DNA from: a bacterium
GTDB taxonomy: Bacteria; Patescibacteriota; Minisyncoccia; Phycocordibacterales; UBA6899
Length of the DNA: 64,000 nucleotides
Assembly (NCBI GenBank): GCA_043756865.1
Contig: JAYUQG010000025.1
Coordinates: forward strand, 921 to 64,920
Direction of reading: 5' to 3'
Part shown: in pieces, positions 10,113-36,091 of the stretch
Layout: each line of letters begins with the position of its first letter
Numbering within the stretch: position 1 is the first letter of the stretch
The notes under the pieces: model-generated
The model's database searches: none
Seen by the model: the letters and a program-made list of their open reading frames with translations, nothing else
What the model was told of the DNA's origin: nothing
Position numbers and translations under genes: made by a program

Positions 10113-12260
<2,148 letters not shown>

Positions 12261-18573: not shown

Positions 18574-19449
18574 CTATTTTCTGATCACCACCGTCCCGTC
18601 ACTTTCAAATACTATCCGTTTCTCCTCATGCGTAATAAGCGTCGTGACTGCTGTTTTTGCAAGGGTATCAATAACTTCTTTGTGCGGATGTCCATAACTA
18701 TTCTCTTTTCCTGCGGAGATAACCGCCACATCGGGCTGTACTGCGGCAAGCCAGTATGGTGAGGTCGATGTACGTGAACCATGATGTCCAATCTTGACTA
18801 CATTGGCGCGCAACTGCTCACCATACACACCCACTAAATATTCTTCGATATGTTTCGGTAGGTCACCAGAGAGGAGAAAAGAAGTTTCGCCATAGCGAAT
18901 GAGAAGCACTATAGATGCACTATTTGTTTCCATGTCTGTCGTATCATGGTCGGGGTACAACACTTCCGCAACTGCCCCTCCACCCAAATCTATCAGCATG
19001 CCTTTCTTTGCTATAAAGTGTGCTGCACCTTCTCGCACAATTGCCGCCTGACTTTCGTCATACACACCATTTGTCGATGTAACCCCCGGTTCAAGTGCGA
19101 CCGCAATTGCGTAACGTTTAAATACTTCAGGGAACCCTCCGATGTGATCCATGTCAGGATGGGACAAAACGACAACATCGATAGAGCGGTCCCAAAAAGG
19201 AAGTTCGTCCGCAAGCGCGCGGAGCGTTGCGCCTGTCGGTGGGCCGGCATCATAGAGTATCTGATTTCCTGTTGGTCCTTGAATGAGGACTGCGTCACCT
19301 TGCCCCACATTGAGAAACGAAACGCGGAGCACGTTTGATTGTGTGTGCATCGCGATACCAAGGAGCAGTACATCGATGAGTGCGAAACAACACACCACCA
19401 CAATCAGGGGGTGACGCCGCAGCCACCTTAGTGTGCCCTGCTTTTTCAT
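18574..19449 (-). CDS. Stand-alone ComEC/Rec2-type metallo-beta-lactamase domain protein
   Basis: N-terminal TM, then LNVGQGDAVLI ... HPDMDH ... IGHHGS, typical of the ComEC C-terminal MBL domain. Confidence 0.8.
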   Translation of the reverse strand: MKKQGTLRWLRRHPLIVVVCCFALIDVLLLGIAMHTQSNVLRVSFLNVGQGDAVLIQGPTGNQILYDAGPPTGATLRALADELPFWDRSIDVVVLSHPDMDHIGGFPEVFKRYAIAVALEPGVTSTNGVYDESQAAIVREGAAHFIAKKGMLIDLGGGAVAEVLYPDHDTTDMETNSASIVLLIRYGETSFLLSGDLPKHIEEYLVGVYGEQLRANVVKIGHHGSRTSTSPYWLAAVQPDVAVISAGKENSYGHPHKEVIDTLAKTAVTTLITHEEKRIVFESDGTVVIRK

Positions 19450-19560
19450 GCACCCAGACTAACACGTGATGGTAAGTAAGGAGGGACTGGACAGAATCTA
19501 AAAATGTGTTAATCTGCGTTTAGTAGCTCATACTCATTCAACTCACAGAAAGGAACTCCC

Positions 19561-20607
19561 GTGGCAGATCACAAGGCGATTACCCTCCTCACTTCCCCCT
19601 CGATGCTCTATCTGGCAGAGCCGATTCATGCCGCACTCCATCAGCTGGGAGTCGACTGCGGAAAACTGCTGACGGTCAAGTACGACCAATTCGCTGATGG
19701 CGAGTTCAAGGCATTCATTCCTGAGTCCATCCGAAACACGCACGTCTATTTCGTGCACTCGTTTTTCCCCGACACCAACAGGGGTATCTGGGAATTGTTT
19801 CAGGTGAATGATGCACTGCGGCGTGCGGATGCCGACTCGTTCAGCGACGTGCTTCCATACTTTGCGTGTGCAAGACAAGACCGCAGAAAGCCGCGTGAGC
19901 CGATTACTGCTGCACTCTTGGCCAGCATCCTTGCTTCACAGGGTGTGCGAAGATTGTTCACCATCGACTTGCATGCCGACCAGATTCAGGGATTTTTCCC
20001 CGGACCGTTCGACAACCTCTTCGGTGAAGATATCTTTCTTCCGTACTTCCTCACCAAGCACTCGAGTGCATCTGATGTCGTTGCAATTGCCGCAGACGTC
20101 GGAGGTGGCAAGCGCGTACGCGCTTTTGCACGAAGGGTTGCAGAAGCCCTCGGAATGACGGAGCCGGTACCATTTGGCATCATCGACAAAGATCGCGTAC
20201 ACGCGAACGAAATCGAAGGGATGGCATACGGAGCAGGGCCGAGTGTGCGAGGTAAGCACGTTTGGATTAGCGAAGACATGATTGACACCGGCGGAACTGC
20301 GCTCAAGGCAGGACGATTGCTCCTCGATCAGGGAGCAGCCTCAGCAACAATCATGGCGACACATCCGGTGTTCAGCCCCAAGCTCGACAAAGTCACAGGG
20401 CTACGTACTGCCGAGGAGAAGTTCGCACGAAGCGGCATTAACGTTGTGGTTGCAAAAACCATTCCGCGTGACGCAGCGTACTACGAAGCACACAAAACGT
20501 GGCTTACTCCTTTAGACATTGATGCGCTCTTTGCAGATGCCATCTACCAATCGACCCTCATTCGTGGAAGCGTGAGCGGTGTCTCGAGAACGAAAAAGAA
20601 AAAATAA
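19561..20607 (+). CDS. prs: Ribose-phosphate pyrophosphokinase (PRPP synthetase)
   Basis: DLHADQIQGFF and ISEDMIDTGGTAL (PRPP-binding) motifs. Length 348 aa. Confidence 0.9.
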   Translation: MADHKAITLLTSPSMLYLAEPIHAALHQLGVDCGKLLTVKYDQFADGEFKAFIPESIRNTHVYFVHSFFPDTNRGIWELFQVNDALRRADADSFSDVLPYFACARQDRRKPREPITAALLASILASQGVRRLFTIDLHADQIQGFFPGPFDNLFGEDIFLPYFLTKHSSASDVVAIAADVGGGKRVRAFARRVAEALGMTEPVPFGIIDKDRVHANEIEGMAYGAGPSVRGKHVWISEDMIDTGGTALKAGRLLLDQGAASATIMATHPVFSPKLDKVTGLRTAEEKFARSGINVVVAKTIPRDAAYYEAHKTWLTPLDIDALFADAIYQSTLIRGSVSGVSRTKKKK

Positions 20608-21325: not shown

Positions 21326-22105
21326 ATGAATACTCAGTTTCCAAGGTCGGTACGGGTGATATTCGACGAGTTTGGCCCCCACGTCCCCTACGCGGTAAAT
21401 CTCGCAGAACTGCTGCAGGTTCCTATCGAGGTCTTTGGACCGCTTCCTGATGCCACACTATTGGCAGGTGGCGCACTCCAACATCGTGCCCCACACCAGC
21501 TCCGCGCAGTCATGCATCAGCGTATCGGGGCGCACGTGCGGGCACTGCTCACTGGAAAATCCAATATCGACGTGCGAACGCACATCGAAGACATGCGCTT
21601 GGGAGACGGCTATATTGTTGTTTCCTGTGCAACGGACACACACCAAGATGTTCCGGTGCTTTCCCCCGCGGGAGAGCGGAGTGTGTTTCGTGAAACCAAG
21701 GGTCCGATTTTTGTCCCCCTCGGTGATGGGCCCTCCGGATTAGTTGGTGCGACGCAGGGTATCAAGGTTGCGGCACAACTCAACACGCCAATTGTGTTTT
21801 GGCATACCACGTGGCGTAACGCCAGAGTGACGGACGACGAACCGCGACTACACATCACAGTAAGTGCTGAGCAAGTTATCGCAAATGCGGAAGCCCTTGC
21901 GAGCGCTGCGGGAATAGCCTACTCCACACAATGTGTTTGTGCTGACGATGTGGTACAGGGAATCATTCGCGCTGCGCAACATGTCGGTGCCTCACTTGTC
22001 GTTATGGCTCGTGGAGGCCACAAATTATTCGGCACCTATACGGACCGTGTGCGTGCGCGCAACTGCCCCATTCCGATGCTCATGATTCCAGAGGAGACGA
22101 AATGA
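21326..22105 (+). CDS. Universal stress protein family protein (tandem/extended)
   Basis: C-terminal GASLVVMARGGHKLFGTYTDRVRARNCPIPMLMIP is a typical USP end. Start chosen at MNTQF. Confidence 0.65.
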   Translation: MNTQFPRSVRVIFDEFGPHVPYAVNLAELLQVPIEVFGPLPDATLLAGGALQHRAPHQLRAVMHQRIGAHVRALLTGKSNIDVRTHIEDMRLGDGYIVVSCATDTHQDVPVLSPAGERSVFRETKGPIFVPLGDGPSGLVGATQGIKVAAQLNTPIVFWHTTWRNARVTDDEPRLHITVSAEQVIANAEALASAAGIAYSTQCVCADDVVQGIIRAAQHVGASLVVMARGGHKLFGTYTDRVRARNCPIPMLMIPEETK

Positions 22106-23331
22106 TGAACCGCACAATTTCGTGGTTTAATCCGTCAGTCGTCCTCACCATCGGAATTATTGCCTGTCTTTTGCGGGTGCTCATGAAGCTTGGTGTTGGG
22201 TTTGAAGTGAACTCACCACTCCTAATCGGTGACGGCTTCCACAATATCAGCGACGTCGGATACGAACTCGCGGCACTCTTCATCCTGTGGATTGTGCATT
22301 GGAAACGCAATGTTATGCATGCGGGCGAAAACATGGGCGTCATGTTTCAGTTCGGAATTGTGTGGCTGATGGTGTTTCTTGCACTCTACATCGGGTACCA
22401 GTCCTTCCTTGGACTGTTCCCCTGTCCTTCGTGCGAAGCGAGTGTACGGAGCGTCTTCCCGTTTATTCCCGAATTCAAGCCGCACAACGAAGACGCATCG
22501 GCATACGGAATGATTATGCTGGCACTGGTATTATCGATTGCCATCTCATGGTACTCGAGCAGTTACCACATCAAGGCCGGCGAAGCGAGCGGCTACGGCA
22601 CCCTAATCACCATCGGCAAGGAAACCCGCAGTGACATGATGATCGAGTGTTCTATTCTCGGCGGCTTTGTCGGGGAATTCCTCTTCAATGCACCGTGGAT
22701 TGAGTATGTCTTTGGCATCGCGGTGATGTTCCTCATCTTGCGCACGGCATGGGAACTCTTTATTGAAGCAAACAACACCTTTCTGCAGGTTTCTATCGGT
22801 GATACGTTCGTTCGCGGTGTGACCACCTTGGTGCAGTCTAGTTATGGAATCGAGCGGATCGTAAAGCTCGAGACATACCCCGTGCTCCAAGTCGCACGTG
22901 TGAAAGTCTGGGTTGAAACCCGCGGAGGCGCCGAGGCCAACGAAGATATCCGTAATGCACTCGAGAGTCGCATCTGCAATTTTGCACACGAACAGGGATT
23001 CGCAGAATGCAGACCGGACATTTTCTTCACCATGCCACACAACGATTGGCACCGCATCGTCTTTGCGCTTTGGAAAAACGCAGGCGTCCAAGTCGTTGCA
23101 CCCGGTATTGCGAGCGCGACACATTTGCGCGTGTGCGACGTGGAGCATGGTGAAGTCGTAAGTGCCGAGGACATCGTGGCACCAATGGATACGCAGGCAC
23201 TCACGCAACTCCTCCAAGCGAAACATGTACGCAGCTATCGCGCGTTTGATGAATTACCCGCAGCCGTTAAGGCTCTTGCAGATGCGGGAATTGAGTACAC
23301 GCAAACTCCCACGGTCATGCCTCCTCGCTAA
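22102..23331 (+). CDS. Cation diffusion facilitator (CDF) family metal efflux transporter with cytoplasmic C-terminal domain
   Basis: IGDGFHNISDVGYELAALF signature in TM2. Six TMs plus a C-terminal domain. ATGA overlap with the USP gene. Confidence 0.75.
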   Translation: MMNRTISWFNPSVVLTIGIIACLLRVLMKLGVGFEVNSPLLIGDGFHNISDVGYELAALFILWIVHWKRNVMHAGENMGVMFQFGIVWLMVFLALYIGYQSFLGLFPCPSCEASVRSVFPFIPEFKPHNEDASAYGMIMLALVLSIAISWYSSSYHIKAGEASGYGTLITIGKETRSDMMIECSILGGFVGEFLFNAPWIEYVFGIAVMFLILRTAWELFIEANNTFLQVSIGDTFVRGVTTLVQSSYGIERIVKLETYPVLQVARVKVWVETRGGAEANEDIRNALESRICNFAHEQGFAECRPDIFFTMPHNDWHRIVFALWKNAGVQVVAPGIASATHLRVCDVEHGEVVSAEDIVAPMDTQALTQLLQAKHVRSYRAFDELPAAVKALADAGIEYTQTPTVMPPR

Positions 23332-23338
23332 TACACAA

Positions 23339-23360
23339 CCCGCCCACCGGCGGGTTTTTG
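23339..23360 (+). terminator. Rho-independent terminator
   Basis: cccgcc-cacc-ggcggg followed by TTTTTG. Confidence 0.65.
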
Positions 23361-23430
23361 TTTCGCGCGAAGCGCCTGCATTGGCGCGTAGCGCTGGAAA
23401 AGTGAGTCTGCGAGCGACAACGCCAAATAG

Positions 23431-23452
23431 CAAAAACCCGCCGTGTGGCGGG
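23431..23452 (-). terminator. Rho-independent terminator for nadE
   Basis: Minus strand: cccgcc-acac-ggcggg followed by TTTTTG. Confidence 0.6.
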
Positions 23453-23459
23453 TTGTGTT

Positions 23460-25439
23460 TCAATCAGGAAGTGCGTCAATCGCAGCGAGTGACCCATTCA
23501 GCCACTCCATTGATTTAACGATGGGCATCTGGATTGCGCGTTCTCGTTCAAGGTCCAAGGAGCCAAGGTGTATGGCGGGTGGCGAGACAACCCACTTGAA
23601 GGTGGTGTTGTAGCTCATCTTCACAAACCCTTTCACCCACTTCTTGAGGAGTCCCTTTGTGTAACCAGGATAGACGCGTGCGAGATCATCGTCACTCCAC
23701 ATGTTGCGCACGATGCCATACACCTCGTGTGGCATCAGTTTCTCGCCGTAGAAGAGTTGGATGCAAGCATCCAAGACTTCAATCGAGCCGATGTCATCTT
23801 CATCGCGCTGGTCATCCGCAAGCTCTGCGGATTCTTCCGACGCTATGAGCGAATCCAGTGACGCAAGGTTGTGGCGAGTCTTTCGCAGGTGCGCAATCAA
23901 GGCACGCACGACTGTCTTCGGGAGATTCCCCAACAGCGAATATGCGCCTGCAGTGAAGTCGCCGCCGACAGTGCCGTACCCAAGCGCCTTCTCAGTCATG
24001 TTGCCGCAATGGACAAGCAATGAGCCGTCTGCGTTCGAAAGGTTCTGCATGCGTGTCATGCGAATGCGCGGCATGATGTTCTGCACCGCAATACCCGAAG
24101 GCTCAACTCCACCCAGTTGCGCACGGAGTTCAGCAAGTTCACGCTCGAACGCTTCCTGGATAGGACGCTCTTCAAACTGCACTCCAAGCTCTTCGCAGAG
24201 GTCGCGCGCGATCGACTTAGTGATCGTCGAGTTGAACCGGCTCGGCATTGATACACACTTGATGAAATTGCGTATCCAATCTTTCTTGTGTGGAAGATTC
24301 TTGTATCTTTTTTCCGCATACAGATACACCAACAAGAGTGTCAGGGCCGAGTCGCGGCCACCCGAAAGCGCGATGAGGGTCGATTTGAAGACTCTCGACT
24401 TTTCGAAGTACCCTTTGTACCCGAGCACCATCGCTTCGATGAGTTCTTCGAAGTACTCTTCGCGAGGTGTGAGCACAGGACCCTCCGCAAGCGACGGGAT
24501 CATGAAGCTTTTCTGGCTCGGGATTGGGTACTTGTAGGACGGATGATTCGCAGCGGGACCTGAGCCGGAGAACGAAATCAGCCGCGGTTGGGGCATGCCT
24601 GAGCGACGCGCTTCTTCCGCATCGATGCGACGTGTCGTGTTGGCGCTGCGCGAGAGCCGTGTGCGGTCGAGGTCCACAACCTGTGTCCACACACCTTCGG
24701 TCCAACGCACTGCTTCGAAAATCTTCTGGCCGTTCTGGAAGACAAATCCGCCACCGTCTAAGACGAGTGCGTCCATGCCACCAATTCCGTTCACGTACAG
24801 CAAGGTGCAGTAGTTATCGGACGAACGCGTCGCGAGCATTTCACGTCGCGTGCCAATGACACCTGCGCGCCACGGCGAACCGTTGATGCTTATGGCGACC
24901 TCGGCACCCGCATATGCGCGACGCTTCATGGGGCCGTCAGGCGACCAGCAATCCTCGCAAATTTCGACTTCCATCTTTCCAAACGGGAACTCGAAAATGA
25001 GATCACCAAAGGCAATGCCTTCGATCTCGCCATACATGCCGGGGAATCCCCGCGCAAAGGTGCGCATGTCGTAAAAGACACCGTAGGTCGGAAGCTTTTC
25101 CTTCGGCACAATGCCGAGGATGCGCCCATTGTTTACTACCGCGGCGCAGTTGTAGACAGCGTCGTCGTAGAACACTGCAAGGCCAAACACAAAGACGGAG
25201 TCGAACGCTTTCGTATCTGCGGCAAAGCGTTTGAGATACTGCCACTGCAAGTCCACGAAGCCCTGCCAGTGCACAAGGTCTTCTGCGGGATAGCCGCACA
25301 ACACCATTTCGGAAGTTGCGACAATTGTCGCATTTTCCTTTGCGGCCTTGAGTGCAGCGGAAAGCACCGCGTGGTAGTTCGTTTCCATTGCGCCGACAGT
25401 AACGTCGACATTGAGTCCGGCAAGTTTGATGAGTCTCAT
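23460..25439 (-). CDS. nadE: Glutamine-dependent NAD+ synthetase (N-terminal CN-hydrolase + NAD synthetase domain)
   Basis: N-terminal nitrilase-like domain. LIALSGGRDSALT PP-loop. Start at MRLIKLAGLN with GGAAGG RBS. Confidence 0.9.
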   Translation of the reverse strand: MRLIKLAGLNVDVTVGAMETNYHAVLSAALKAAKENATIVATSEMVLCGYPAEDLVHWQGFVDLQWQYLKRFAADTKAFDSVFVFGLAVFYDDAVYNCAAVVNNGRILGIVPKEKLPTYGVFYDMRTFARGFPGMYGEIEGIAFGDLIFEFPFGKMEVEICEDCWSPDGPMKRRAYAGAEVAISINGSPWRAGVIGTRREMLATRSSDNYCTLLYVNGIGGMDALVLDGGGFVFQNGQKIFEAVRWTEGVWTQVVDLDRTRLSRSANTTRRIDAEEARRSGMPQPRLISFSGSGPAANHPSYKYPIPSQKSFMIPSLAEGPVLTPREEYFEELIEAMVLGYKGYFEKSRVFKSTLIALSGGRDSALTLLLVYLYAEKRYKNLPHKKDWIRNFIKCVSMPSRFNSTITKSIARDLCEELGVQFEERPIQEAFERELAELRAQLGGVEPSGIAVQNIMPRIRMTRMQNLSNADGSLLVHCGNMTEKALGYGTVGGDFTAGAYSLLGNLPKTVVRALIAHLRKTRHNLASLDSLIASEESAELADDQRDEDDIGSIEVLDACIQLFYGEKLMPHEVYGIVRNMWSDDDLARVYPGYTKGLLKKWVKGFVKMSYNTTFKWVVSPPAIHLGSLDLERERAIQMPIVKSMEWLNGSLAAIDALPD

Positions 25440-25570
25440 GGAATATTCCTTCCGATGATTAATTAACAAAGAGCAATCACTCGTTGAGCACTTTATGTGT
25501 ATACAGTGCTCAATAAGTGGGCGGAGCATGTATTGCTACATACTCCGCCAAAAAACTTCTCGTGAAAAGA

Positions 25571-26911
25571 TCAGACGATGACCGCTTGTGTGATGCGATC
25601 TTCGCCGCCAAAGATTTCGACGTAACGTGCGACCTCATCCTTCGGGCCAGTAGCCTTTGTGATGTTGTCCGAGAGTTTCACGCACGGACGACCGTTGGCT
25701 TCGACGGCCTTGCACACGAGCGAGAACGGTTTGTAGACCTCGCGCCACGTGAGTGGCGAAAGTCCCGGCACCAACTCGTCGGCGCGCGGATGCAGGTCGG
25801 CGAAGTTATTGGTGAACATGGTTCCCTGAAGGAAACGTGTCTTGATTCGTCCGCGAAAGTGCCGCTCGATCTTGTCCATCGTGTCGGCCTTGTTGCCGTC
25901 GCTAAAGATGATCATCTTCGTCTTCGGGTCGATGCCGCGCGACTCGTACGCAGGGATGACAAGCTCATCACCAAACGTAAACGGGCTACCCGAATCATGG
26001 CGGTTTGTATGCCAGTTGTGCATGAGCCAATCCGGCGCATCACGATAGAAGCTCTTCGACATGAAGGTGTCCGGGAGTGCGACACCAAGCGCAGGGCCGT
26101 AGAGTGCGTCCCACTGGCGTAGCACCTCGTAGACCATCACAATCTTCGCATCGTTTCCGTCGACGAGCGCGTTCGTCACCATTTGCAGTTCGTGACCAAA
26201 TGTACCGCCGGGCACCATGTCATACTTCATCGCCATCCACACGTTGGATGTGCCGATGAGCTGACTACCGAGCACTTCCTTGCCGGCACGCAGGGTGAAC
26301 CGTTGCCAGTCAAAACTGTGTCTGCGACGAGTCCCACCCTCCAAGAGGATGATGTTCGGGTTCGCCTTGATACGGTGCAACTCTTCGTAATGCCGAGCTG
26401 TGGCGCGAGCGTAGACGACCTCGAGGTCAACGCGGCTCATGCGGCGCTCAAGCGAGAAGAAGTACAGATCCATGACGATGGCCATGGCGTAAATTTCCCA
26501 CATGCTCGCATGTGGCCAGTCCGACGGAAAACGCAGACGATACTGGTTGCCCTCACGACGTAGCTCGTAGTTTCCTGCACCGACACGAAAGTCGCGCAGG
26601 AACTCCAAGAACTCGTCGCTGAACATGTTGCGGTTCAAGACGTTGATGCCGCGGATGTAGGTCATGTCAGTGAGACTCGGACCGACATCGCACATGGCAT
26701 CCAGTGCCGCACGAAGTTCCGTCTCGTCGACGATTTCCGCGACCGGAATGTGGTGTTCGCGATTGATGAGCTCAAACGTGACGTTCACTTCCTTGTAGTA
26801 CTTCCAGATGAAGTGCAGCATCGTCAGCTTGTAAAAGTCGATGTCCGTGAACTTTTGCACGGGACGATAGGGACGTTCAGCGTGAAGCACGCGGTCAGCA
26901 AAGTCAGCCAT
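25571..26911 (-). CDS. pncB: Nicotinate phosphoribosyltransferase
   Basis: DFYKLTM signature near the N-terminus. About 445 aa. RBS AAAGGA. Confidence 0.85.
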   Translation of the reverse strand: MADFADRVLHAERPYRPVQKFTDIDFYKLTMLHFIWKYYKEVNVTFELINREHHIPVAEIVDETELRAALDAMCDVGPSLTDMTYIRGINVLNRNMFSDEFLEFLRDFRVGAGNYELRREGNQYRLRFPSDWPHASMWEIYAMAIVMDLYFFSLERRMSRVDLEVVYARATARHYEELHRIKANPNIILLEGGTRRRHSFDWQRFTLRAGKEVLGSQLIGTSNVWMAMKYDMVPGGTFGHELQMVTNALVDGNDAKIVMVYEVLRQWDALYGPALGVALPDTFMSKSFYRDAPDWLMHNWHTNRHDSGSPFTFGDELVIPAYESRGIDPKTKMIIFSDGNKADTMDKIERHFRGRIKTRFLQGTMFTNNFADLHPRADELVPGLSPLTWREVYKPFSLVCKAVEANGRPCVKLSDNITKATGPKDEVARYVEIFGGEDRITQAVIV

Positions 26912-27010
26912 TTGGCGTTCCTTTCGGGTTGGAAAAAACACAGTATCTTTTAAGAAACTACATCATTTTTACTGTTTTGTCAATGCTATTCCCTCTTCAA
27001 TTTCATAGAG

Positions 27011-27045
27011 CTGTATCTTAGTGTATTTTATACACTAAGATACAG
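27011..27045. promoter_or_regulatory. 35-bp perfect palindrome (16-bp arms) upstream of pncB-nadE; candidate operator
   Basis: ctgtatcttagtgtat-ttt-atacactaagatacag. Its 21-nt core cttagtgtattttatacacta recurs at 31917-31937. Confidence 0.55.
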
Positions 27046-27124
27046 AAAGTCAAGTAATTGGGGTACAAAAAAACAGGGGACGAATCCCCTGTTGGTTAAC
27101 GATGCAAAAGAGCTTGTTGTTGAA

Positions 27125-27904
27125 TCAGGCGCCGAAGCCGCCACCAGCCGTCTGGCTGAACGCATTCGCGCCTTGTGAGGCACGCACTGCGGATTGGGAA
27201 AACACGGCGAACGCCTTGCGGATTTCAGTCTCGGAGTTACCGGGAGTGAGAATCCACTTGGCATCGATGCCCATCGAGGTGGCAACCTTGCGGAAGTCGG
27301 TGTGTCCGTCGTCGATACCCATGAAAGCGACGATGTGCGCTTCCGACAGGCCGTTCACGACCTTCGCGACATCACTCGGCTTCTTGTACCGCTGCGAGCC
27401 GTACTCGGCACCGTCGCAAACGATGAGGGTCGCCGAGCGTGCGGAACAGCCACCATTCTGGAACTCCTGCGACTTGGCGACGACGCCGCCGAGCGTGACG
27501 ATCGACTGATCGTAGAGTGGGGTCGAGCCGAAAGCTTCGTAGTTGTTCTGGTCGAGGTCGAACGCTTGGTCGATCGGCGTGTAGGGCATGAGAATCTTGC
27601 CGTTCAGGTAGCGCACGCAGATCAGAATGCCGTTGCACTGCTTCGAGTCGGCAAGCGACTTGCGAACCAAGTTGCAGCCATTGCGAACCACTTGCTCGTT
27701 GCCCGACTGGCGAATCGAGCCGGAGTCGTCGACGAGGAGCGTGACGAGGAAAACTTCCGACGCATCGACATCGTCGACCGAAATACCGAGGCCGGCCTGG
27801 ATTTGCTGACCGAGGTCAGGGATGGCGAAGACTGCGGCTGCCGCTGCATCAAGGGCACCTTCAGCGACTGCTGTGCCGAAGAGGGTTTGAACATTCTGGG
27901 ACAT
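27125..27904 (-). CDS. von Willebrand factor type A (vWA) domain protein
   Basis: MIDAS motif LLVDDSGSI with downstream Thr and Asp positions. About 180-aa vWA fold. Confidence 0.75.
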   Translation of the reverse strand: MSQNVQTLFGTAVAEGALDAAAAAVFAIPDLGQQIQAGLGISVDDVDASEVFLVTLLVDDSGSIRQSGNEQVVRNGCNLVRKSLADSKQCNGILICVRYLNGKILMPYTPIDQAFDLDQNNYEAFGSTPLYDQSIVTLGGVVAKSQEFQNGGCSARSATLIVCDGAEYGSQRYKKPSDVAKVVNGLSEAHIVAFMGIDDGHTDFRKVATSMGIDAKWILTPGNSETEIRKAFAVFSQSAVRASQGANAFSQTAGGGFGA

Positions 27905-27970
27905 GGAGATTCCTTTCGAGGGTTTGGGTGAGGGAGCGTAGTTGTGTTGCGCTCCCTTGGGGTTCGGAAA

Positions 27971-29020
27971 TCAGGCCTTGAGCCAGCTCGCCATCGGGTC
28001 GGTCGAGTTCACGATGTTCATGCCGAGTGCAGCATATTCATCGAGCGCCTTTTCCGCCTGCGAGGTGAAGTCCACGAGCCCAGGGACCACCACCGACGAC
28101 GTGCAGTCACGCAGGACGTACACCTTTTGTGCCAGCGCCTTGTCCTTGACGAGAATCTCTTTGACGAGATCGTCGATCGAAGACTTCACGCAGTGCGAAG
28201 CAGCTTGCCCGGCGATGATGACCGCGTCGTAGTCGAGCAGGGTCTTCAAGAGCGAAACGTTGCGTTGAGCAATCGCACCCTTCTGGTCGTACCGTTCGGT
28301 GACTTCGGGTCCGAAGATCGAGTAGTTCTCGGTCAGCGGGTTGCCGCCCTTCACTTGCGGGCTGTTCTGTGCGCCGCGCACGTACGAGTGGAAGAGACGC
28401 GCTTCTTGCATGAGGCCGACGAGGTTGTGACCCTCAGAACCGAGAATGCAGTGCTCCGGCCAGATGTAGAGCATGTACTTGCCCGTGTGTCCGCCTTCGA
28501 CGACTTTCTTGCAGTAGAACTGCACTTGCTTCAGGAGCCACGCGTACGGCACACCGACGATGCCGGCAACGACCGGATTCGGTGTTGCACGACCGGCCGG
28601 TTTGCCTGCGCGCATGATGGTCATTTCGCCGTCGATCATGTCGTGCGGCTGGAGCGGCTTGCCGTTTTCGTCGAGCCAGAACATCGGCGAGAAAATCTGG
28701 AACGCTTCGTGCGTGTCCAATGTCGGGAAGATCGAAGTGATGCTTCCCATCTCGCGGTAGATGAACTCGGTCAGACGACGTGAGTCGTCGATCGCGCCGG
28801 TACCGGAGCGGCCGCCCACATAGAGCGTCCCTTCAGGAAAGCAGAAATCACGTTGCACGTCGATGGGCATGAGCGCGACGCGCTTGCCGTCGTTGACCGC
28901 CTTGGTGATCTTGTTGTCAGCAGCGTATGCAGGTGCTTCCTCGGCGAGGATGCGCGCAGCGGGGTTGTAGTTCCATTTCGCAGCATGTGCTGCCTTGTAG
29001 AAACTCGGGATGTGATTCAT
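27971..29020 (-). CDS. pncA: Nicotinamidase/isochorismatase-family cysteine hydrolase (PncA-like with insertions)
   Basis: IDVQRDFC, TLDTHEAFQIFS (D-H-H metal triad region), WPEHCILGS and AGQAASHCVKSSIDD match PncA catalytic regions. Confidence 0.7.
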   Translation of the reverse strand: MNHIPSFYKAAHAAKWNYNPAARILAEEAPAYAADNKITKAVNDGKRVALMPIDVQRDFCFPEGTLYVGGRSGTGAIDDSRRLTEFIYREMGSITSIFPTLDTHEAFQIFSPMFWLDENGKPLQPHDMIDGEMTIMRAGKPAGRATPNPVVAGIVGVPYAWLLKQVQFYCKKVVEGGHTGKYMLYIWPEHCILGSEGHNLVGLMQEARLFHSYVRGAQNSPQVKGGNPLTENYSIFGPEVTERYDQKGAIAQRNVSLLKTLLDYDAVIIAGQAASHCVKSSIDDLVKEILVKDKALAQKVYVLRDCTSSVVVPGLVDFTSQAEKALDEYAALGMNIVNSTDPMASWLKA

Positions 29021-29080
29021 GAGTCTAGCCTGCCTTTCGAGCGGGTGGTTGGGAGAGGGGGGGGTTGGTGGGAAAGCCCA

Positions 29081-30973
29081 TCATTTGACGCGGATGCGCC
29101 AAATACGGGAAGAGGTGACTGCATAAATGCCGTCGGAACCAAACAGTAGCTTCGTAGACGTATCCACGAAGCGTGCCGTGTCTGCATACGTTTTCGCTGC
29201 ATCGAGTGTCCCTTGCGGGGAACTTTCGACGCGAACGATTCCCTCATCGGTTGTGGCGAAAAGGAGCTTCCCTGTCGCACACTTGCCGTGAATGTTTTCG
29301 AGCCAGGAGCCGTCTCCGCGAGTTGCCTGCGCTGTACCAACCAACGTGCCATCTGATTTCCACATGAACATGTGGTTCGTGAGCACGCCTTGGTAATCGG
29401 TAGTCGCAGAAAACCAGCAATGGTCTGACGAGAATGTCGCAGTCGCGTCGATGAGCACTCCGTTCATTTTCGGGAGACTCACTTCACGTCCGATAGACAG
29501 GTGCTCGGGTTTGAAGAGATGCGCGCGCGTAATCTCGCCTGCTTGATAGAAGACGAAACCGAGATGCTCGGACACCCAGAGCAATGTCTGTCCTTGAAGC
29601 ACCTCGCCGACATTTTCGCCGTACGTGATACCGAGTACGCCACCGTACCTGCGCAGAAACCCGCCTTCGGCTGCGAACACATACTTGCTGTTCGCGTCGA
29701 CGATGGGCACGCGTCCCCGATAGAGGTCTACCGAGAAGCGATGCTCAGGATTACCGGAAGCATTTAGGAGTATTACCGTGCTTCCTTTTGCGATAACGGT
29801 CCGCGAACCGCTCAAGCGGATACGGAATTCCGGATCAATTGCGCCATCGAGGAGTTTTGCTGCCCCCTCACGTTTGTACACGTTGCTTTCGTTGTAGACG
29901 TACTTTGGCACTCCTCCTTGTGTAGTCGCGTAGAGGACGCGACCGAGTGTGTCGATGATTTTCGTTGCTTCCACCTTGTTAGTGATGACTTCGTTGACCG
30001 TCACTTCCGGCTGCGGTTGGCAGCTCGGGCATGAAGATCTCGCGTGCACCTGCTTGCATAGCGGGCACGCCGTGAAGCGTAGCCGCGAAAGCATCTGCAG
30101 AGGAATGCCGTCACGTTCATCGTGCACGAACATCTGCTCGAAACGATGCAGCAAGTCGTCCGGAAGAATTGCGTAATGCCGTGCCGCCTTTGGGTAGCGC
30201 ACTTCAGGTGAAAACACCGTCATGCGACCCCGTTGACGTTCGGAATCCGAGAATTTCTTCGCAGGAGCCTTAGGAATGTGTACGCCGCCATACGGGCCGA
30301 CGAACAAGAGTGCCTGCATGAGCATCACTGCGTATGCGTACCAGTCTGACTGCGCGTCGTGCGGCTTCTTGAGGTCGATGCCGCTCGAGAGGTCACAATG
30401 AGTCGGGTCCACAAAGCGTGGCGTAAAGACCCGCGACAGAAACTTGCCGAACTGCATGCTGTCTGCGTCGACGAGCATGGGGGTATCTGCCCCGTCAATC
30501 ATCACATTGAGGTCATTGAAGTCCCCGATGATGACACTTTTCCGGTGAATGCCGGAAATCAGTTCGTGCAGCTGGACGAGGATGCCAACCATGCGTTGAT
30601 CGGAAATTCCTTGTGCTTCCCGATACTTGCGTTCCGAGTACTTGAGCAGCACCTCCGCACCGGAGAGGAACTTCATCGAATAACCGATGATTGCCCCACC
30701 TTTCGCACCGGTAATAAGTGCGCGTGGACCAACAACTTGGTCGGGTAGCCCTTTGGGAAAGGCAGGCAACTTGAGCTGGTGCTCTTCAATACGTAATTGC
30801 GCCATTTTCTGCGCAACAGGATCGCCAGAGAAGGCGAGGTGCGAGGAAGTTTTGAAGATTTTCCCGACGTCCCCATTAGAAAGTCGATAGATCTCCGCTT
30901 CACCACCCTCACCCACCATGTCCTTGGGATTGAGTCGCTGGTGTGTTCCGTTGAACACCACTTCGATGGCCAT
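29081..30973 (-). CDS. Ser/Thr protein kinase-like domain fused to zinc ribbon and C-terminal repeat (propeller-like) domain
   Basis: Gly-loop VGEGGEAEIY, VGKIFK lysine, catalytic-loop-like IIGDFNDLNVMI, DFG-like VDADSMQFG. Then CPLCKQ...CPSC and repetitive beta-rich C-terminus. Confidence 0.7.
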   Translation of the reverse strand: MAIEVVFNGTHQRLNPKDMVGEGGEAEIYRLSNGDVGKIFKTSSHLAFSGDPVAQKMAQLRIEEHQLKLPAFPKGLPDQVVGPRALITGAKGGAIIGYSMKFLSGAEVLLKYSERKYREAQGISDQRMVGILVQLHELISGIHRKSVIIGDFNDLNVMIDGADTPMLVDADSMQFGKFLSRVFTPRFVDPTHCDLSSGIDLKKPHDAQSDWYAYAVMLMQALLFVGPYGGVHIPKAPAKKFSDSERQRGRMTVFSPEVRYPKAARHYAILPDDLLHRFEQMFVHDERDGIPLQMLSRLRFTACPLCKQVHARSSCPSCQPQPEVTVNEVITNKVEATKIIDTLGRVLYATTQGGVPKYVYNESNVYKREGAAKLLDGAIDPEFRIRLSGSRTVIAKGSTVILLNASGNPEHRFSVDLYRGRVPIVDANSKYVFAAEGGFLRRYGGVLGITYGENVGEVLQGQTLLWVSEHLGFVFYQAGEITRAHLFKPEHLSIGREVSLPKMNGVLIDATATFSSDHCWFSATTDYQGVLTNHMFMWKSDGTLVGTAQATRGDGSWLENIHGKCATGKLLFATTDEGIVRVESSPQGTLDAAKTYADTARFVDTSTKLLFGSDGIYAVTSSRIWRIRVK

Positions 30974-30985
30974 AAGACCTCCCTG

Positions 30986-31756
30986 TTAGAGTGTGCGTCG
31001 TGCGAGAACGATGCTGGTGTCGTCTTTGAGTGGCCCACCAAGAAGTCGTCCGTCGACAATCTTCTCGCAATTGATCACTGCGAGTCGTCTGCGAAGGATG
31101 TCTTTCGTTGTGAAGACCACGTTTTGGGACACCCACGTTGCTATCGTGACCGACGAAAAGTCGGGAAAGTGGTCAATGCCGTCGGTTGCGACAAGAATCG
31201 ACGTGATGTCGCTTGTCGCAAACTCGAGTACGCTGAAACGCGAACGCGAGTCGTCTCCGTCAGCAATTCCGTATGCGAGGTAGGGGGGTTCGTTCCTTTC
31301 GAACGGCCCCAGATTGGTTACCCCGCCGTTCACCGCATAGGTTCCGTCGCCGCAATAGAAGATGTATGTCCGCTCTGGCAGCACAAGAAAACCGACAACA
31401 GAAAACAGGAAGTACGACTTCACTGCTTCAGACGCACTTTCGCCCATCTGGGCAGCGAGAACCGCAATGTTTCCCAACACATGGGAACGTAGTTCTGACC
31501 AACGATTGAAGCTGTTGTGTCCTTGCGAGACGGTGCGTGCTGCCAGAAAAAGCAGCCGTTCACCGAGCATCTTTGCACCAAGTTGTGCACCAACTTCACT
31601 TGAAGCACCGGAGCCACACCCGTCGGCAACAAGGCCGACCGATATGTCACCAGCAGACGCAAAAAAATGTGCGTCCTGACAATTTTTCCATGTCGGTTGT
31701 CCCGGCATGGTGTGGTCAGTTCCGGGAACTGACGCTCCTGCGAGTTGAAATCCCAC
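30986..31756 (-). CDS. PP2C-family Ser/Thr phosphatase
   Basis: LVADGCGSGA ... CGDGTY ... ATDGI metal-binding Asp motifs of the PPM fold. 13 nt upstream of the kinase gene. Confidence 0.7.
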   Translation of the reverse strand: MGFQLAGASVPGTDHTMPGQPTWKNCQDAHFFASAGDISVGLVADGCGSGASSEVGAQLGAKMLGERLLFLAARTVSQGHNSFNRWSELRSHVLGNIAVLAAQMGESASEAVKSYFLFSVVGFLVLPERTYIFYCGDGTYAVNGGVTNLGPFERNEPPYLAYGIADGDDSRSRFSVLEFATSDITSILVATDGIDHFPDFSSVTIATWVSQNVVFTTKDILRRRLAVINCEKIVDGRLLGGPLKDDTSIVLARRTL

Positions 31757-31916
31757 TATTCACTCCTAACTGTTGATTGATGGATTCAGTTGACAATGAG
31801 CAACTATGTTTGCACAAAGCCTGAATGTTAACTATCACATTGTTCAGGAAATGTCAACTATGGTGTGTGCGCTTTGCTTAAAGCGGTTTTAGGTGGGACT
31901 TGATTTTAAAGTGCAA

Positions 31917-31937
31917 CTTAGTGTATTTTATACACTA
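31917..31937. promoter_or_regulatory. Second copy of the 21-nt palindromic motif, upstream of the PP2C-kinase-pncA-vWA operon
   Basis: cttagtgtattttatacacta is identical to 27017-27037. Lies between the TrmB-like regulator gene and the PP2C gene. Confidence 0.5.
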
Positions 31938-32007
31938 TATAAAATTATGCAAATTAAAGCTGGGGAAAAGCTTGTGGATAATGTGGGATTGGAGGAAGCT
32001 AACTTAG

Positions 32008-32748
32008 CTAGAGCTTCCTGAATAGCAGCTCAAAAATCTTCGCTTGGAACTTTGCCACGGACTCGTTTTCAATAACGACTGCAGTTTCGGTGTTGTAGTC
32101 GATGACTGCAACCTTATTGGCGTAAATAATCTGCGAAATATTGTACTCAAAGAGGTCAAAATCTGGAGGAACAACCTTGATTTCACGCTCCAGTCTTTTG
32201 CGTTTATTAAGCGTATTTGGAACGTTGGTAATTACCTTACGTTCCAACTGCTTCGCGTCGCGAAGGAGGCGGTACTTTTTAGAAAGATAGCGAGGGCGTA
32301 CATCTGTAGTCTGGTTATGCACATTCGAGGAGCTGTAACGATAATAGGTCTCCCCTTTTTTGAGTGTTTCTACAATATCGTTGTAAATTGCGGTAATCCC
32401 CTTTTGCCCTTCGACGTACTTCACCACGGGTCGAACTGACACGGGAGTGCGCCCGAGCTGGGTGAGTGCGGCAAGTTCGTCATCAAACAGATTGGAAAGT
32501 TCAAGAAACTTTACTTCGAGTTTCTTGGGTGATTCAGCTCTGTAATGCTTATATTTCCCCTTGAGCGTCATACTCACTAAGCCTTCGCGCTCGAGCTCTG
32601 CAATTGCCTCGTATATCACCGTGCGATACAAACCAGTTTTGCGAAACAAATCAGATATACTCATCCTGCCAAACTCAAGAAGAACGAGGTAGACGATACT
32701 TGCACGCTCAGTTAAACCCAGTTTTTTGAGAAAATTCTTATGTTCCAT
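32008..32748 (-). CDS. TrmB-like winged-helix transcriptional regulator
   Basis: N-terminal LTERASIVYLVLLEFGRMSISDLFRKTGLYRTVIYEAIAELEREGLV resembles the TrmB HTH. Followed by a sensor-like C-domain. Confidence 0.65.
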   Translation of the reverse strand: MEHKNFLKKLGLTERASIVYLVLLEFGRMSISDLFRKTGLYRTVIYEAIAELEREGLVSMTLKGKYKHYRAESPKKLEVKFLELSNLFDDELAALTQLGRTPVSVRPVVKYVEGQKGITAIYNDIVETLKKGETYYRYSSSNVHNQTTDVRPRYLSKKYRLLRDAKQLERKVITNVPNTLNKRKRLEREIKVVPPDFDLFEYNISQIIYANKVAVIDYNTETAVVIENESVAKFQAKIFELLFRKL

Positions 32749-32911
32749 AAAGTTGTATGAATTTAGTACATGTTTAGTATAGCAAAATAGTCTTTATATA
32801 CAACAAATTATAAGGTAACTCATCAAATATTTACAACTTATTAAAAATATTCAGACAAGATTTTTATGCTGCGTATAGTGCATACAGATGAACAGTACAT
32901 TGAAAGGAAAA

Positions 32912-33514
32912 ATGATGGCAAACAACGAGATGCTGGCAACGCGTGTATCGCGAAATTCGAGACATACGGGCTGCTACATTTCAGTCGATATCGAAGCTAC
33001 GGGACCGACTCCGGGTCACTACAGCATGTATGAGCTTGGAGCTTGCGTGGTCGGTAGTAGTGAGCAATTTGAACGAGCACTCACCCTTCTCCCCAATGCT
33101 GCATGCAACACTAACGCACTGCGCGCGGTGGGAATGACGAAGAAGAAGCTGCTCGAGCGCAGTGGTGCTGTGACCCCCAAGCGCGCAATGCACGAATTTG
33201 CAAAATGGGCCGAGGAAGTGTCACATGGTGACAAGCTCATCTTTGTTGCAAACAACGCACCGTTCGATTGGATGTTTGTTGCGTGGTACTTCGAAGAGGT
33301 ACGGGTGAAAAATCCATTTGGTCATGCCGCACTCGACATGAAAGCATACTTTATGGGAAAAACGGGCTTTAGCTGGAGCGAGTCCAACCTTGCAAAGATG
33401 GCTCAATATGCGGAAATCAGATTCGATCAACTACCTCACAAAGCCCTGCTCGACGCAATCATTCAAGAGCAGATCTTCGTCGGAATACATAACCCAGCAA
33501 AGAAAACACTATGA
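32912..33514 (+). CDS. DEDDh 3'-5' exonuclease (DnaQ/RNase T-like)
   Basis: Exo I ISVDIEATGP. Exo III HKALLDA with His. Start at MMANNE behind AAAGGA. Track ORF starts at 32888. Confidence 0.7.
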   Translation: MMANNEMLATRVSRNSRHTGCYISVDIEATGPTPGHYSMYELGACVVGSSEQFERALTLLPNAACNTNALRAVGMTKKKLLERSGAVTPKRAMHEFAKWAEEVSHGDKLIFVANNAPFDWMFVAWYFEEVRVKNPFGHAALDMKAYFMGKTGFSWSESNLAKMAQYAEIRFDQLPHKALLDAIIQEQIFVGIHNPAKKTL

Positions 33515-34062
33515 ACAACAAGCGCAAAACAATTCTCTTCGACCAAGACGGTGTGCTCGCGAATTACACAAAGGCGCATCTTGATGCAATTGCACGCGAG
33601 TTCCCCGAACTGCCGCGCTACCACGCAAAAGAAGTATCGCACTTCAACACCGAAGAAGTATTTCCAGTGGAGTACCATGAGCGCATTGAGGCACTGGCAC
33701 TGCGACCGGGATTCTTCGCTAACCTTGAGCCCATCCTAGGTGCGGTAGAAGCATTGCAGTCGTTGCTTGCCGAAGGCTACGACGTACGCATTTGCACAGC
33801 ACCTAAGAAGATCTTCGACAATTGTGTCGCCGAAAAATTTGCTTGGGTAAAACGACATCTTGGACAAGAGTTCGTTGAACGTATGGTGCTCACAAGAGAC
33901 AAGACACTCGTCTACGGTGAGATTCTGGTCGATGATAAACCCGACATTACCGGTGTTTGCAAACCAACATGGAAACACGTACTGTACGACCAGCCGTACA
34001 ATCGCAACTCAGACCGCCCCAGACTAACGTGGGCAAATTATCGAGAGGTACTCGGACTATGA
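33511..34062 (+). CDS. 5'(3')-deoxyribonucleotidase (HAD family)
   Basis: ILFDQDGVLA motif I ... ILVDDKP. Size and motif layout of the 5'(3')-deoxyribonucleotidase family. ATGA overlap with the exonuclease. Confidence 0.7.
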   Translation: MNNKRKTILFDQDGVLANYTKAHLDAIAREFPELPRYHAKEVSHFNTEEVFPVEYHERIEALALRPGFFANLEPILGAVEALQSLLAEGYDVRICTAPKKIFDNCVAEKFAWVKRHLGQEFVERMVLTRDKTLVYGEILVDDKPDITGVCKPTWKHVLYDQPYNRNSDRPRLTWANYREVLGL

Positions 34063-34739
34063 AAACGAAAAACGTCTATTTCGGACGACATGGCGAAAGT
34101 CGCGCAAATGCAACAGGTGTTCGCGAAGGTGGCGACTCACCGCTCACGGAGCGAGGACTGCTTCAAGCAAAGTTCTCCGCACTGCGCCTCAAGGGAAAAG
34201 GAATCCAGCGCATCATTTCAAGTGACTATGCTCGGGCGGTTTCCACCGCACTCGTCCACAGTTCGCACCTTGGGCTTCCGCTCACTGACACGTCACCACT
34301 CTTCGCTGAACGAAGAAATCCCAGTGTGATGCTCGGCAAACATGTCGGCGACCCTGAGGTCGAACGCATGTGGCATGAGATCGCATTAAACTACGGGACG
34401 CATGATTGGCGGCACTCGGACGAAGAAAACTTTGCCGATCTTGTGGAGCGTGCGAAGCAGGCCCTCGCATTTCTCGAGTTCATTCCTGAAGACACCGTCT
34501 ACGTCGCCAGCCACGGGATGTTCATGAAAGTCATCTTGGCGCATGTACAACTTGGCGAGCATACGAACGGAAGAATCTTCTGGGACCGGTATGTGCCTAT
34601 CAAGAATGTCGACAACACCGGACTTATGCACCTGCAATTCACGCCAAACTACCACCAGACAGGTATGTACTGGAAGCTCGTCTCGTGGAACGACCGTGCG
34701 CATCTCGAAGCAATGACACCGCATCAAACCAACGAATAG
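34059..34739 (+). CDS. Histidine phosphatase family protein (phosphoglycerate mutase-like)
   Basis: RHGES (RHG catalytic motif) at the N-terminus. ATGA overlap with the preceding gene. Confidence 0.7.
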   Translation: MKTKNVYFGRHGESRANATGVREGGDSPLTERGLLQAKFSALRLKGKGIQRIISSDYARAVSTALVHSSHLGLPLTDTSPLFAERRNPSVMLGKHVGDPEVERMWHEIALNYGTHDWRHSDEENFADLVERAKQALAFLEFIPEDTVYVASHGMFMKVILAHVQLGEHTNGRIFWDRYVPIKNVDNTGLMHLQFTPNYHQTGMYWKLVSWNDRAHLEAMTPHQTNE

Positions 34740-34746
34740 TTGGTAC

Positions 34747-34790
34747 AAAAAAAACGACCGGCCCATTGGGCCGGTCTCTTTCTTATTCAA
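34747..34790. terminator. Bidirectional rho-independent terminator
   Basis: gaccggccc-att-gggccggtc (9-bp stem) flanked by A8 and a T-rich tail. Confidence 0.65.
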
Positions 34791-35928
34791 AACGAAGCTG
34801 GCGCCCCGATGCGCTTTCGGGAAGAAACGTTGCCCGAAGCGTTTGCTTGGAACCTTCTTTCCATCGCTCTAGCAACTTCATCTTCTTGTCGTAGCGCACA
34901 AACTCGATGCGCTTCCAGCCATGCTTTTTCGCATCAGCCTCTTTTGCAATGTCCGCATAAAGTTCGTGGATTGTCTGCGCCTTGTCAACGAGTGAAAGTG
35001 CAACCGCATCTTCGGAGTTAAACCATGCTCCGCTTGTGCGACCCATATCTTCTTTCGACTCGCGCATCAGTACATCCAGCGGAATCTTGCGTGACTCGCT
35101 CACGACTCCGGCAAAGCGGTTGAACGCTTGATCAACTTCGCGCTGAAACATAGCACGATCTCCCGGTGACATCGGTTTCCACTGGCTACCCGAATTCTTT
35201 CGAGGTCCGGTGGAAATCTCTTCTTCGCCAACTCCCAACAAATTGCCGAGCTTGCTCGTGTTGAAAAGGCGCATGATGACACCGATGTTTCCGACTGAAG
35301 CCTCCGGATCCATGATGATCTTGTCGCCTCCGAGCGCAATGTAATACCCACCAGAGTATGCGTGATCGGGCACATAGCTATACACGGGAATCTTAGTCTT
35401 TGCTTTGAATTCCTTGATGACGCGATAACTCTGGGCGCTTGCGACGGCACTTCCACCGCTTGAGGTAATGTACAGAATCACGCCTGCGACGTCTTTTTTA
35501 CCCTCGACAAGTTCGAGTGCATCCTTGAGGTACAGTGTCGTGTTTTCAAATCCCGGTGGCGCAAGCAGATCACCGTCGATACTTCCAATAATGGGAATAA
35601 TCGCGACGTGTCCAACGCCGGATGTTCCCGAAAGCGGAAGCACTGCAGTGGGTTCTTGTTCCACTCGCACATTTTCTGCGGGATCACCGCTAAAGAGAAA
35701 GAGGAAGCCGGCAATGACGACCGTCATTGAAAAAAACGTAACCACACGGCGGCGAAACCGACGCTTCGCTTCATTTTTCATTTCTGCAAAAATGTACGCG
35801 GCAACTTCTTTCAGTTCTCCCGCATAAGCAATGCCGACACTGGCGGGAACCCCTGTGGGCAACTTTCCGATAGCAGCCGAAGCACCACTAGTAGGTTCGG
35901 GTGTGGAATCAAGTTCTGACTGGGACAT
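34783..35928 (-). CDS. sppA: Signal peptide peptidase SppA (S49 family)
   Basis: ClpP/crotonase-fold S49 motifs: ILYITSSGGSAVAS ... YSGGYYIALGGDKIIM. N-terminal TM. Confidence 0.8.
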   Translation of the reverse strand: MSQSELDSTPEPTSGASAAIGKLPTGVPASVGIAYAGELKEVAAYIFAEMKNEAKRRFRRRVVTFFSMTVVIAGFLFLFSGDPAENVRVEQEPTAVLPLSGTSGVGHVAIIPIIGSIDGDLLAPPGFENTTLYLKDALELVEGKKDVAGVILYITSSGGSAVASAQSYRVIKEFKAKTKIPVYSYVPDHAYSGGYYIALGGDKIIMDPEASVGNIGVIMRLFNTSKLGNLLGVGEEEISTGPRKNSGSQWKPMSPGDRAMFQREVDQAFNRFAGVVSESRKIPLDVLMRESKEDMGRTSGAWFNSEDAVALSLVDKAQTIHELYADIAKEADAKKHGWKRIEFVRYDKKMKLLERWKEGSKQTLRATFLPESASGRQLRFE

Positions 35929-36091
35929 AAGTCCTCCTCATGTAGTGAACGATACTCCATTTAGAGTAACGCGCTTAGCAAGAAAGGCAGTCTTGACACA
36001 CCAGAATATTGTGTGGGAAAGAACTGCACATTGACACTCCGCCACACGCCGCTAGCATGGGATATAGAGATGTACCCTGAAAGGAATCGTT

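Follow-up and report, generated by a model that had tools for sequence, protein, structure and literature searches.

The locus described here raises the question of which regulator reads a short palindrome that is shared by two operons. In a 64,000-nucleotide stretch of contig JAYUQG010000025.1 (hereafter the window), the same 21-nt motif lies upstream of the pncB-nadE operon for nicotinamide adenine dinucleotide (NAD) salvage and upstream of an operon encoding a PP2C phosphatase, a kinase-like protein, a nicotinamidase-like protein and a vWA-like protein. An earlier note on this DNA had read the motif as a shared operator and had proposed the neighbouring TrmB-like winged helix-turn-helix (wHTH) protein as its binder. 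Having compared the window with related and metagenome loci, which are given L-numbers below, we regard it as quite probable that both motifs are operators of the Nudix-related repressor NrtR (NrtR boxes) and that they control NAD salvage. This assignment was made because the box fits the NrtR signature and because it tracks nrtR genes in relatives and metagenomes.

First, the motif itself was delimited. The 21-mer CTTAGTGTATTTTATACACTA was found in exactly two copies in the window, at 27017-27037 and 31917-31937, with 0.00 copies expected (100 shuffles), and its core, TAGTGTAT-N3-ATACACTA, did not recur a third time in the window when as many as 3 mismatches were allowed; the 4-mismatch matches to the core were scattered. 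The first site lies in a perfect inverted repeat of 35 bp in total (27011-27045), with 16-nt arms at 27011-27026 and 27030-27045 and a 3-nt spacer, and the arms of the second site are 8 nt long (31919-31926 and 31930-31937). Box 1 (27019..27037, minus strand) reads TAGTGTATAAAATACACTA on the gene strand and belongs to a 21-bp palindrome at 27018-27038 inside the 35-bp perfect palindrome. Box 2 (31919..31937, minus strand) precedes the PP2C operon and follows the stop codon of the TrmB-like gene by 71 nt. The gene-strand sequence of both boxes is TAGTGTA-TAAAAT-ACACTAAG, the general form being TAGTGTA-N5-TACACTA, and the distance from box 1 to the pncB ATG is 107 nt. These coordinates confirm the earlier description of an identical 21-nt motif at two sites, of a perfect 35-bp palindrome with 16-bp arms at the first and of a second site just downstream of the TrmB-like gene and upstream of the PP2C gene; with only two copies in the window, both in promoter regions, there was no generic repeat pattern. 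The 35-bp extended palindrome was rejected as the functional unit and treated as lineage-specific because its outer arms are not kept in L178, while the 19-bp core is retained in both L169 and L178, relatives with a PncB of the same 90%-identity cluster.

Both boxes were found to overlap promoter elements in the same way. A promoter scan placed a promoter-like element P1 of pncB at 27025..27053 on the minus strand (TTGACT at 27053-27048, a 17-nt spacer and TAAAAT at 27030-27025) and a promoter-like element P1 of the PP2C operon at 31925..31953, also on the minus strand (TTTGCA at 31953-31948, a 17-nt spacer and TAAAAT at 31930-31925), so that the central TAAAAT of each box is the predicted -10 of a sigma-70-like promoter on the gene strand. 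The boxes of L003, L004, L005, L008 and L170 likewise have a TTGAC or TTGCA -35 located 16-18 nt upstream of a -10-like box centre, with centre variants that include TATAAT, TATACT and TAAAGT. When the PP2C-operon promoter was aligned with six related ones, a common module was observed, consisting of an upstream 'a' box, TTATCCACA(G), the -35 and a 'b' box containing the -10. In the window, the TTATCCACA element of this seven-locus module lies just upstream of the -35 (31973..31981, minus strand), and the 'a' box lacks its left half, the sequence running directly into the end of the TrmB-like gene. It was noted separately that TTATCCACA(G), which we take to be the textbook DnaA-box consensus, stands upstream of the -35 in the kinase/PP2C-type operon promoters of L005 (~11511-11520), L008, L004, L170 and L001, often as two direct copies 11 bp apart, with one copy in the window.

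These features were then set against the described NrtR regulons. In most groups, NrtR sites are 21-bp palindromes with a GT-N7-AC core that overlap promoter elements, and DNA binding by NrtR is weakened by ADP-ribose (Rodionov et al. 2008, NAR 36:2047, PMC2330246). The window motif has the same architecture: TTAGTGTAT-TTT-ATACACTAA at 27018-27038 contains the GT-N7-AC core GTATTTTATAC, both boxes overlap the predicted -10 in NAD-gene promoter regions, and the box is conserved upstream of orthologous targets across genomes. The targets also agree with the regulon described in 2008 (pncB, nadE, nadD, NAMPT, pncA and nrtR itself), as does the regulator of the relatives, which joins a Nudix domain to a winged helix. 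The present case differs in its host, an uncultivated member of the Candidate Phyla Radiation (CPR; Patescibacteria, Lloydbacteria), in having the -10 hexamer as the box centre itself, in the absence of nrtR from the window and in the inclusion of the PP2C/kinase/vWA/nicotinamidase-like operon. Structures are available for the Shewanella oneidensis NrtR (3GZ5/3GZ6/3GZ8). The NrtR of Mycobacterium smegmatis is likewise an auto-repressor of NAD genes with a palindromic operator beside nrtR (eLife 2019, PMC6800001), but its operator, GTTTTCGA-N7-TCGAAAAC, has an unrelated sequence, and it acts on the de novo genes nadABC (PMC6800001). Enterobacterial NadR and NiaR are also repressors of NAD salvage or synthesis promoters; on direct reading, the sequence and spacing of the box do not match the enterobacterial NadR operator (TGTTTA-N6-TAAACA, an 18-bp palindrome). 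Literature searches found no paper combining NrtR and Patescibacteria, and nothing relevant for the exact motif string together with NrtR.

We assessed the conservation of the box in loci from Candidatus Lloydbacteria and other Paceibacterota (CPR/Patescibacteria), the groups from which the regulator homologues and related loci derive. Across 731 kb of loci fetched with the TrmB-like protein, boxes with at most 2 mismatches were present in only five Lloydbacteria loci. In L005 and L008, which encode TrmB-like orthologues, two boxes ~50 bp apart (0-2 mismatches) precede a pncA-like/vWA/PP2C/kinase operon, and further boxes (0-3 mismatches) precede a nadD-like gene and pncB, the PncB proteins being 28-41% identical to that of the window. 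L170 has boxes upstream of its nrtR gene, of a kinase-x-purA operon, of a NAMPT operon and of a nadD-like gene. Perfect or near-perfect boxes were encountered upstream of pncB in L005, L008, L145 and L178, and upstream of PP2C/pncA-like operons in L005, L008, L083, L106 and L179; the order in L179 (nrtR-nudix-box-PP2C-kinase of 626 aa-348 aa) is that of the window genes, and its proteins share 49-55% identity with theirs. Judged from these loci, the box is conserved upstream of pncB, nadD, NAMPT, nrtR and the signalling operon in distant Lloydbacteria and other Paceibacterota. Because the box is thus kept at orthologous or analogous operons, this phylogenetic footprint supports the proposal of the earlier note that pncB-nadE and the PP2C operon share an operator and form one regulon, the same box occupying the same promoter position in divergent genomes.

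The association of the box with nrtR was examined in two ways. Among the related loci, box and nrtR were seen together in L003, L005, L008, L170, L174, L179 and L182, and no nrtR lies within the window. L005 and L008 carry a gene with Nudix and NrtR_WHD domains (PF21906, E = 5e-25) directly between the TrmB-like gene and the boxes, the box of L003 overlaps the start of nrtR, and that of L170 is located 22 nt upstream of it. Four further nrtR loci (L174, L176, L179 and L182) were retrieved through their protein and so without use of the motif. In L174 and L182, boxes with 2 mismatches or fewer were found within ~200 bp of nrtR, and in L179 ~1 kb downstream of nrtR, just upstream of the PP2C gene; L176 had no box with 3 mismatches or fewer. 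A context-free metagenome scan for the exact 16-base TAGTGTAT-N3-ATACACTA recovered at least 120 loci. An nrtR homologue was present in 19 of the 120 loci listed, mostly abutting the site, and pncB, nadE, pncA or PP2C adjoin the site in other loci of the list. Pfam annotation of the 128 open reading frames (ORFs) starting just beyond the sites of the listed loci returned NrtR_WHD/NUDIX (9), NAPRTase_N (5), NadA (4), QRPTase_N (4), PnuC (2) and NADAR (2), and TrmB was absent from the 25 most frequent families shown for these ORFs. Most of the length of the CPR NrtRs could be matched to solved structures of NrtR and AraR (3gz5, 3e-26; 5bs6, 7e-27), and NrtR gave 6280 matches in Paceibacterota at E<=1e-30.

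By analogy with characterised NrtRs, the following mechanism may be proposed. NrtR, presumably encoded elsewhere in the genome, would bind each box as a dimer and occlude the embedded -10, so blocking RNA polymerase and repressing the pncB-nadE and PP2C/kinase/nicotinamidase-like/vWA operons alike. NAD consumption yields ADP-ribose; once this ligand occupied the Nudix domain, the repressor would leave the DNA and NAD salvage would be switched on. Because a second promoter-like element separates each box from its gene, both targets may be served by two promoters, a distal one under regulation and a proximal one giving basal expression. These elements, read from the sequence on the minus strand, are TTGACA-N17-TAGTTT at 26955..26983, between box 1 and the pncB ATG, and TTGACA-N17-TAGTTA at 31829..31857, between box 2 and the PP2C start codon. 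The downstream TTGACA-N17-TAGTT(T/A) element could be a basal promoter, in which case it would give unregulated expression, or another binding site.

Several observations weigh against the NrtR assignment. No nrtR or Nudix-like gene was detected in the window, where the best E of a 16-sequence NrtR profile over all stop-to-stop ORFs was 1.1 and tblastn for nrtR gave nothing, and the candidate of an nrtR inside the window was rejected on these two null results. Compared with L005 and L008, the window is consistent with a deletion of half of the 'a' box together with nrtR. The four candidate NrtR proteins (P0141, P0130, P0236 and P0227) derive from other samples, so that nrtR is presumed to be present in this genome. 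Finally, TTGACA-N17-TAGTTn is kept upstream of pncB in L178, L177, L008 and L005, including distant Lloydbacteria (PncB 28-41% identical), and this conserved element could be the main promoter; repression by simple occlusion would then not be expected of a box at -80/-106. From the apparent deletion it does not follow that the genome as a whole lacks nrtR. The two boxes, perfect and identical to each other, argue that a binder still exists; we infer that nrtR is present elsewhere in this genome, its place in relatives being directly between the TrmB-like gene and the boxes.

The alternative that retains the most credit, though we consider it unlikely, is that the boxes are relics or are read by another factor, nrtR having been lost from the lineage and the sites persisting mainly as a -10 element. 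The missing nrtR at its L005/L008 position, the degenerate 'a' box and the doubling of the box centre as a -10 hexamer all speak for this reading, but the two boxes are identical and perfect 8+8 palindromes, intact also in L169 and L178, and a role as promoter would not by itself preserve the outer TAGTG/CACTA arms. NrtR is, moreover, nearly ubiquitous in the phylum.

It is improbable that the palindrome is bound by the TrmB-like wHTH protein next to it (32008..32748, minus strand), which would then control both operons as a new TrmB-family NAD regulator. The gene adjoins box 2, boxes stand a few kb or less from its orthologues in L001, L003, L004, L005, L008 and L170, no nrtR was found in the window, and the candidate operator of the TrmB-like protein has the same TGTA/TACA tetranucleotides as the box. 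However, the motif does not co-occur with this regulator across genomes: the TrmB-like orthologue loci without nrtR (L002, L007, L009 and L172/L173) have no box with 3 mismatches or fewer in fetched flanks of up to 10 kb, and a TrmB-like match was present in 1 of the 120 exact-motif loci listed, being weak (26% identity, 4 kb away), versus 19 with nrtR. The recognition-helix region of the window protein also matches that of orthologues from nrtR-containing genomes. In L005 and L008 the position between the TrmB-like gene and the boxes is occupied by nrtR, and the adjacency in the window is best explained as synteny.

The TrmB-like family, which is well conserved, CPR-specific and present as several paralogues per genome, appears to have an operator of its own. 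No NrtR-type box was found in the leader of the window gene or at its promoter; instead, 4 nt upstream of the ATG, there is a palindrome ATGTACTAAATTCATACAA (TGTA-N9-TACA; 32753..32771, minus strand), the candidate TrmB-like operator. In 24 of 30 genes of the family, the 50 nt before the start contain a TGTA-N8-10-TACA palindrome, against a background of 0.006 per 50 nt, and its spacing is 4 bp wider than that of the box (TGTA-N5-TACA). In the orthologues it takes the form TTGTAT-N7-ATACAA, 2-4 nt before the start codon and just after a -10-like box, and the leader palindrome was noted in L001-L042, L170 and L172, covering every orthologue and most paralogues. It was read as a protein-binding site because the half-sites are conserved in sequence and not covarying, and TGTA-N8-10-TACA is probably the auto-operator of the family. 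A TGTA-N9-TACA regulon elsewhere in the window was sought and rejected, the only occurrences being the gene's own leader and one intragenic, probably chance match at 49728. The protein shares the N-terminal wHTH and arm with the TrmB of Pyrococcus/Thermococcus (PDB 3QPH; profile E = 3e-9, residues 3-109), but its C-terminal 140 residues have no solved relative by sequence, and nothing connects it with the NAD box. The genes that stay with the orthologues are not NAD genes but those of an operon for an Rv2179c-like 3'-5' exonuclease, an NT5C 5'-nucleotidase and a His_Phos_1 phosphatase, found in the window at 32888-34733 on the plus strand, divergent from the TrmB-like gene. Because this synteny is kept in most orthologue loci, the exonuclease/NT5C/His_Phos_1 operon is the likely true target of the TrmB-like regulator. 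The NrtR signature, the nrtR association, the orthologues without boxes and this different palindrome together mean that the binder named in the earlier note was not borne out.

A related scenario, for which the prospects appear similarly poor, is regulator replacement with an unchanged operator, in which nrtR was truly lost and another factor reads the kept boxes. The TrmB-like protein would be the most obvious candidate, because its own operator uses TGTA/TACA half-sites at a different spacing, and replacement, if true, would make it the first TrmB-family NAD regulator.

Hardly credible is a chance or generic dispersed repeat or an RNA hairpin or terminator, for although the 35-bp palindrome would form a strong hairpin and the exact 16-base motif occurs in many unrelated metagenome contigs, the window has 2 copies where 0 are expected, both in promoter regions, L178 keeps the 19-bp core and not the outer arms, no Rfam match was found, the real terminator lies upstream of box 1, and the genes flanking the scan sites are enriched for NAD functions among the loci listed. 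A riboswitch or other RNA element at the boxes was also rejected, as no Rfam family matched; the lone match to the covariance models at E<=1 in 22000-36000 was a stray one inside nadE, far below threshold.

The operons behind the boxes were characterized as follows, with gene predictions that agree with the gene calls of the earlier note. The TrmB-like gene, both operons and the terminator are all on the minus strand, where the order is TrmB-like gene, box 2, PP2C_2, kinase-like, nicotinamidase-like, vWA-like, terminator, box 1, pncB and nadE. The target gene pncB (25571..26911, minus strand) encodes nicotinate phosphoribosyltransferase and is followed by nadE, encoding a glutamine-dependent NAD synthetase (23460..25529, minus strand; probable start 25439, as in the 659-aa gene call of L169). 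The second operon (minus strand) comprises a PP2C_2 phosphatase (30986..31756), a remote homologue of E. coli PphC/YegK; a 630-aa kinase-like protein (29081..30973), a remote homologue of E. coli YegI; a 349-aa nicotinamidase/isochorismatase-like protein (27971..29020), which has weak family matches and DVQRDF and HCV motifs; and a 259-aa vWA-like protein (27125..27904), with a DDSGS motif resembling a metal-ion-dependent adhesion site (MIDAS) and a weak match to YegL. An intrinsic terminator at 27072..27093 (minus strand) ends this operon upstream of box 1 and separates the two operons. The organism of the window is also present in Logan sample SRR23617209.

The same triad is known from E. 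coli, where YegI is an atypical kinase (~630 aa), PphC (YegK) a PP2C_2 phosphatase (~255 aa) and YegL a small vWA protein. The window differs in that the homology is very remote (pairwise E of 2e-10 for kinase-YegI, 2e-5 for PP2C-PphC and 0.07 for vWA-YegL) and in that the triad shares an operon with a nicotinamidase-like enzyme behind an NrtR box. It was noted that the kinase/PP2C/vWA triad is joined to a nicotinamidase-like paralogue behind an NrtR box in L005, L008, L150, L179, L106 and L083 as well, with varying gene order. Two other interpretations of the operon were discarded. An anti-phage defence system was rejected because the PADLOC matches of the four operon proteins were all sub-threshold noise, and the label 'vWA ternary conflict system' was dropped, in favour of the comparison with YegI/PphC/YegL, because the literature shows that system to have a different architecture.

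Further observations were made in the compared loci. In several Lloydbacteria and Paceibacterota, nrtR adjoins an operon in which a kinase-like gene and an unknown gene are combined with purA (adenylosuccinate synthetase) (L170, 15491-16621 and 13097-14431; L001, 7209-10736; also L174 and L176). NrtR boxes precede this purA operon in L170, L001 and L174, and none was found in L176, which suggests a tie of purine synthesis to the NAD regulon. In L008, the nadD-like gene and the pncB box are separated by a gene for an RVT_1 reverse transcriptase (19335-20324). Four copies of GAGTAGTGTATAT(T/C)ATACACTACTC with a 120-bp period were noted in L129 (15-393), an unrelated, AT-rich contig from a metagenome; this tandem array shares the palindrome by happenstance.

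CPR bacteria have a minimal metabolism and depend on scavenged cofactor precursors, and to our knowledge almost no transcriptional regulation has been described in them. The NrtR type of regulon has been known since 2008; what is new is the CPR host, the operator that doubles as a -10 and the recurrent operon of kinase, PP2C, vWA and nicotinamidase paralogue. A concrete regulator-operator pair is thereby proposed for NAD salvage in a CPR bacterium, an assignment made by gene adjacency is corrected, and the TrmB-like family gains a candidate operator of its own. Control of the YegI/PphC/YegL-like module and the nicotinamidase paralogue by the NrtR of Paceibacterota is more probable than regulator replacement. 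The placement of the kinase/PP2C/vWA/nicotinamidase-like operon in the NAD regulon of several Paceibacterota lineages would offer a first functional handle on the poorly understood YegI/PphC/YegL-type triad, and NrtR control of this triad, if true, would link ADP-ribose and NAD status to Ser/Thr signalling.

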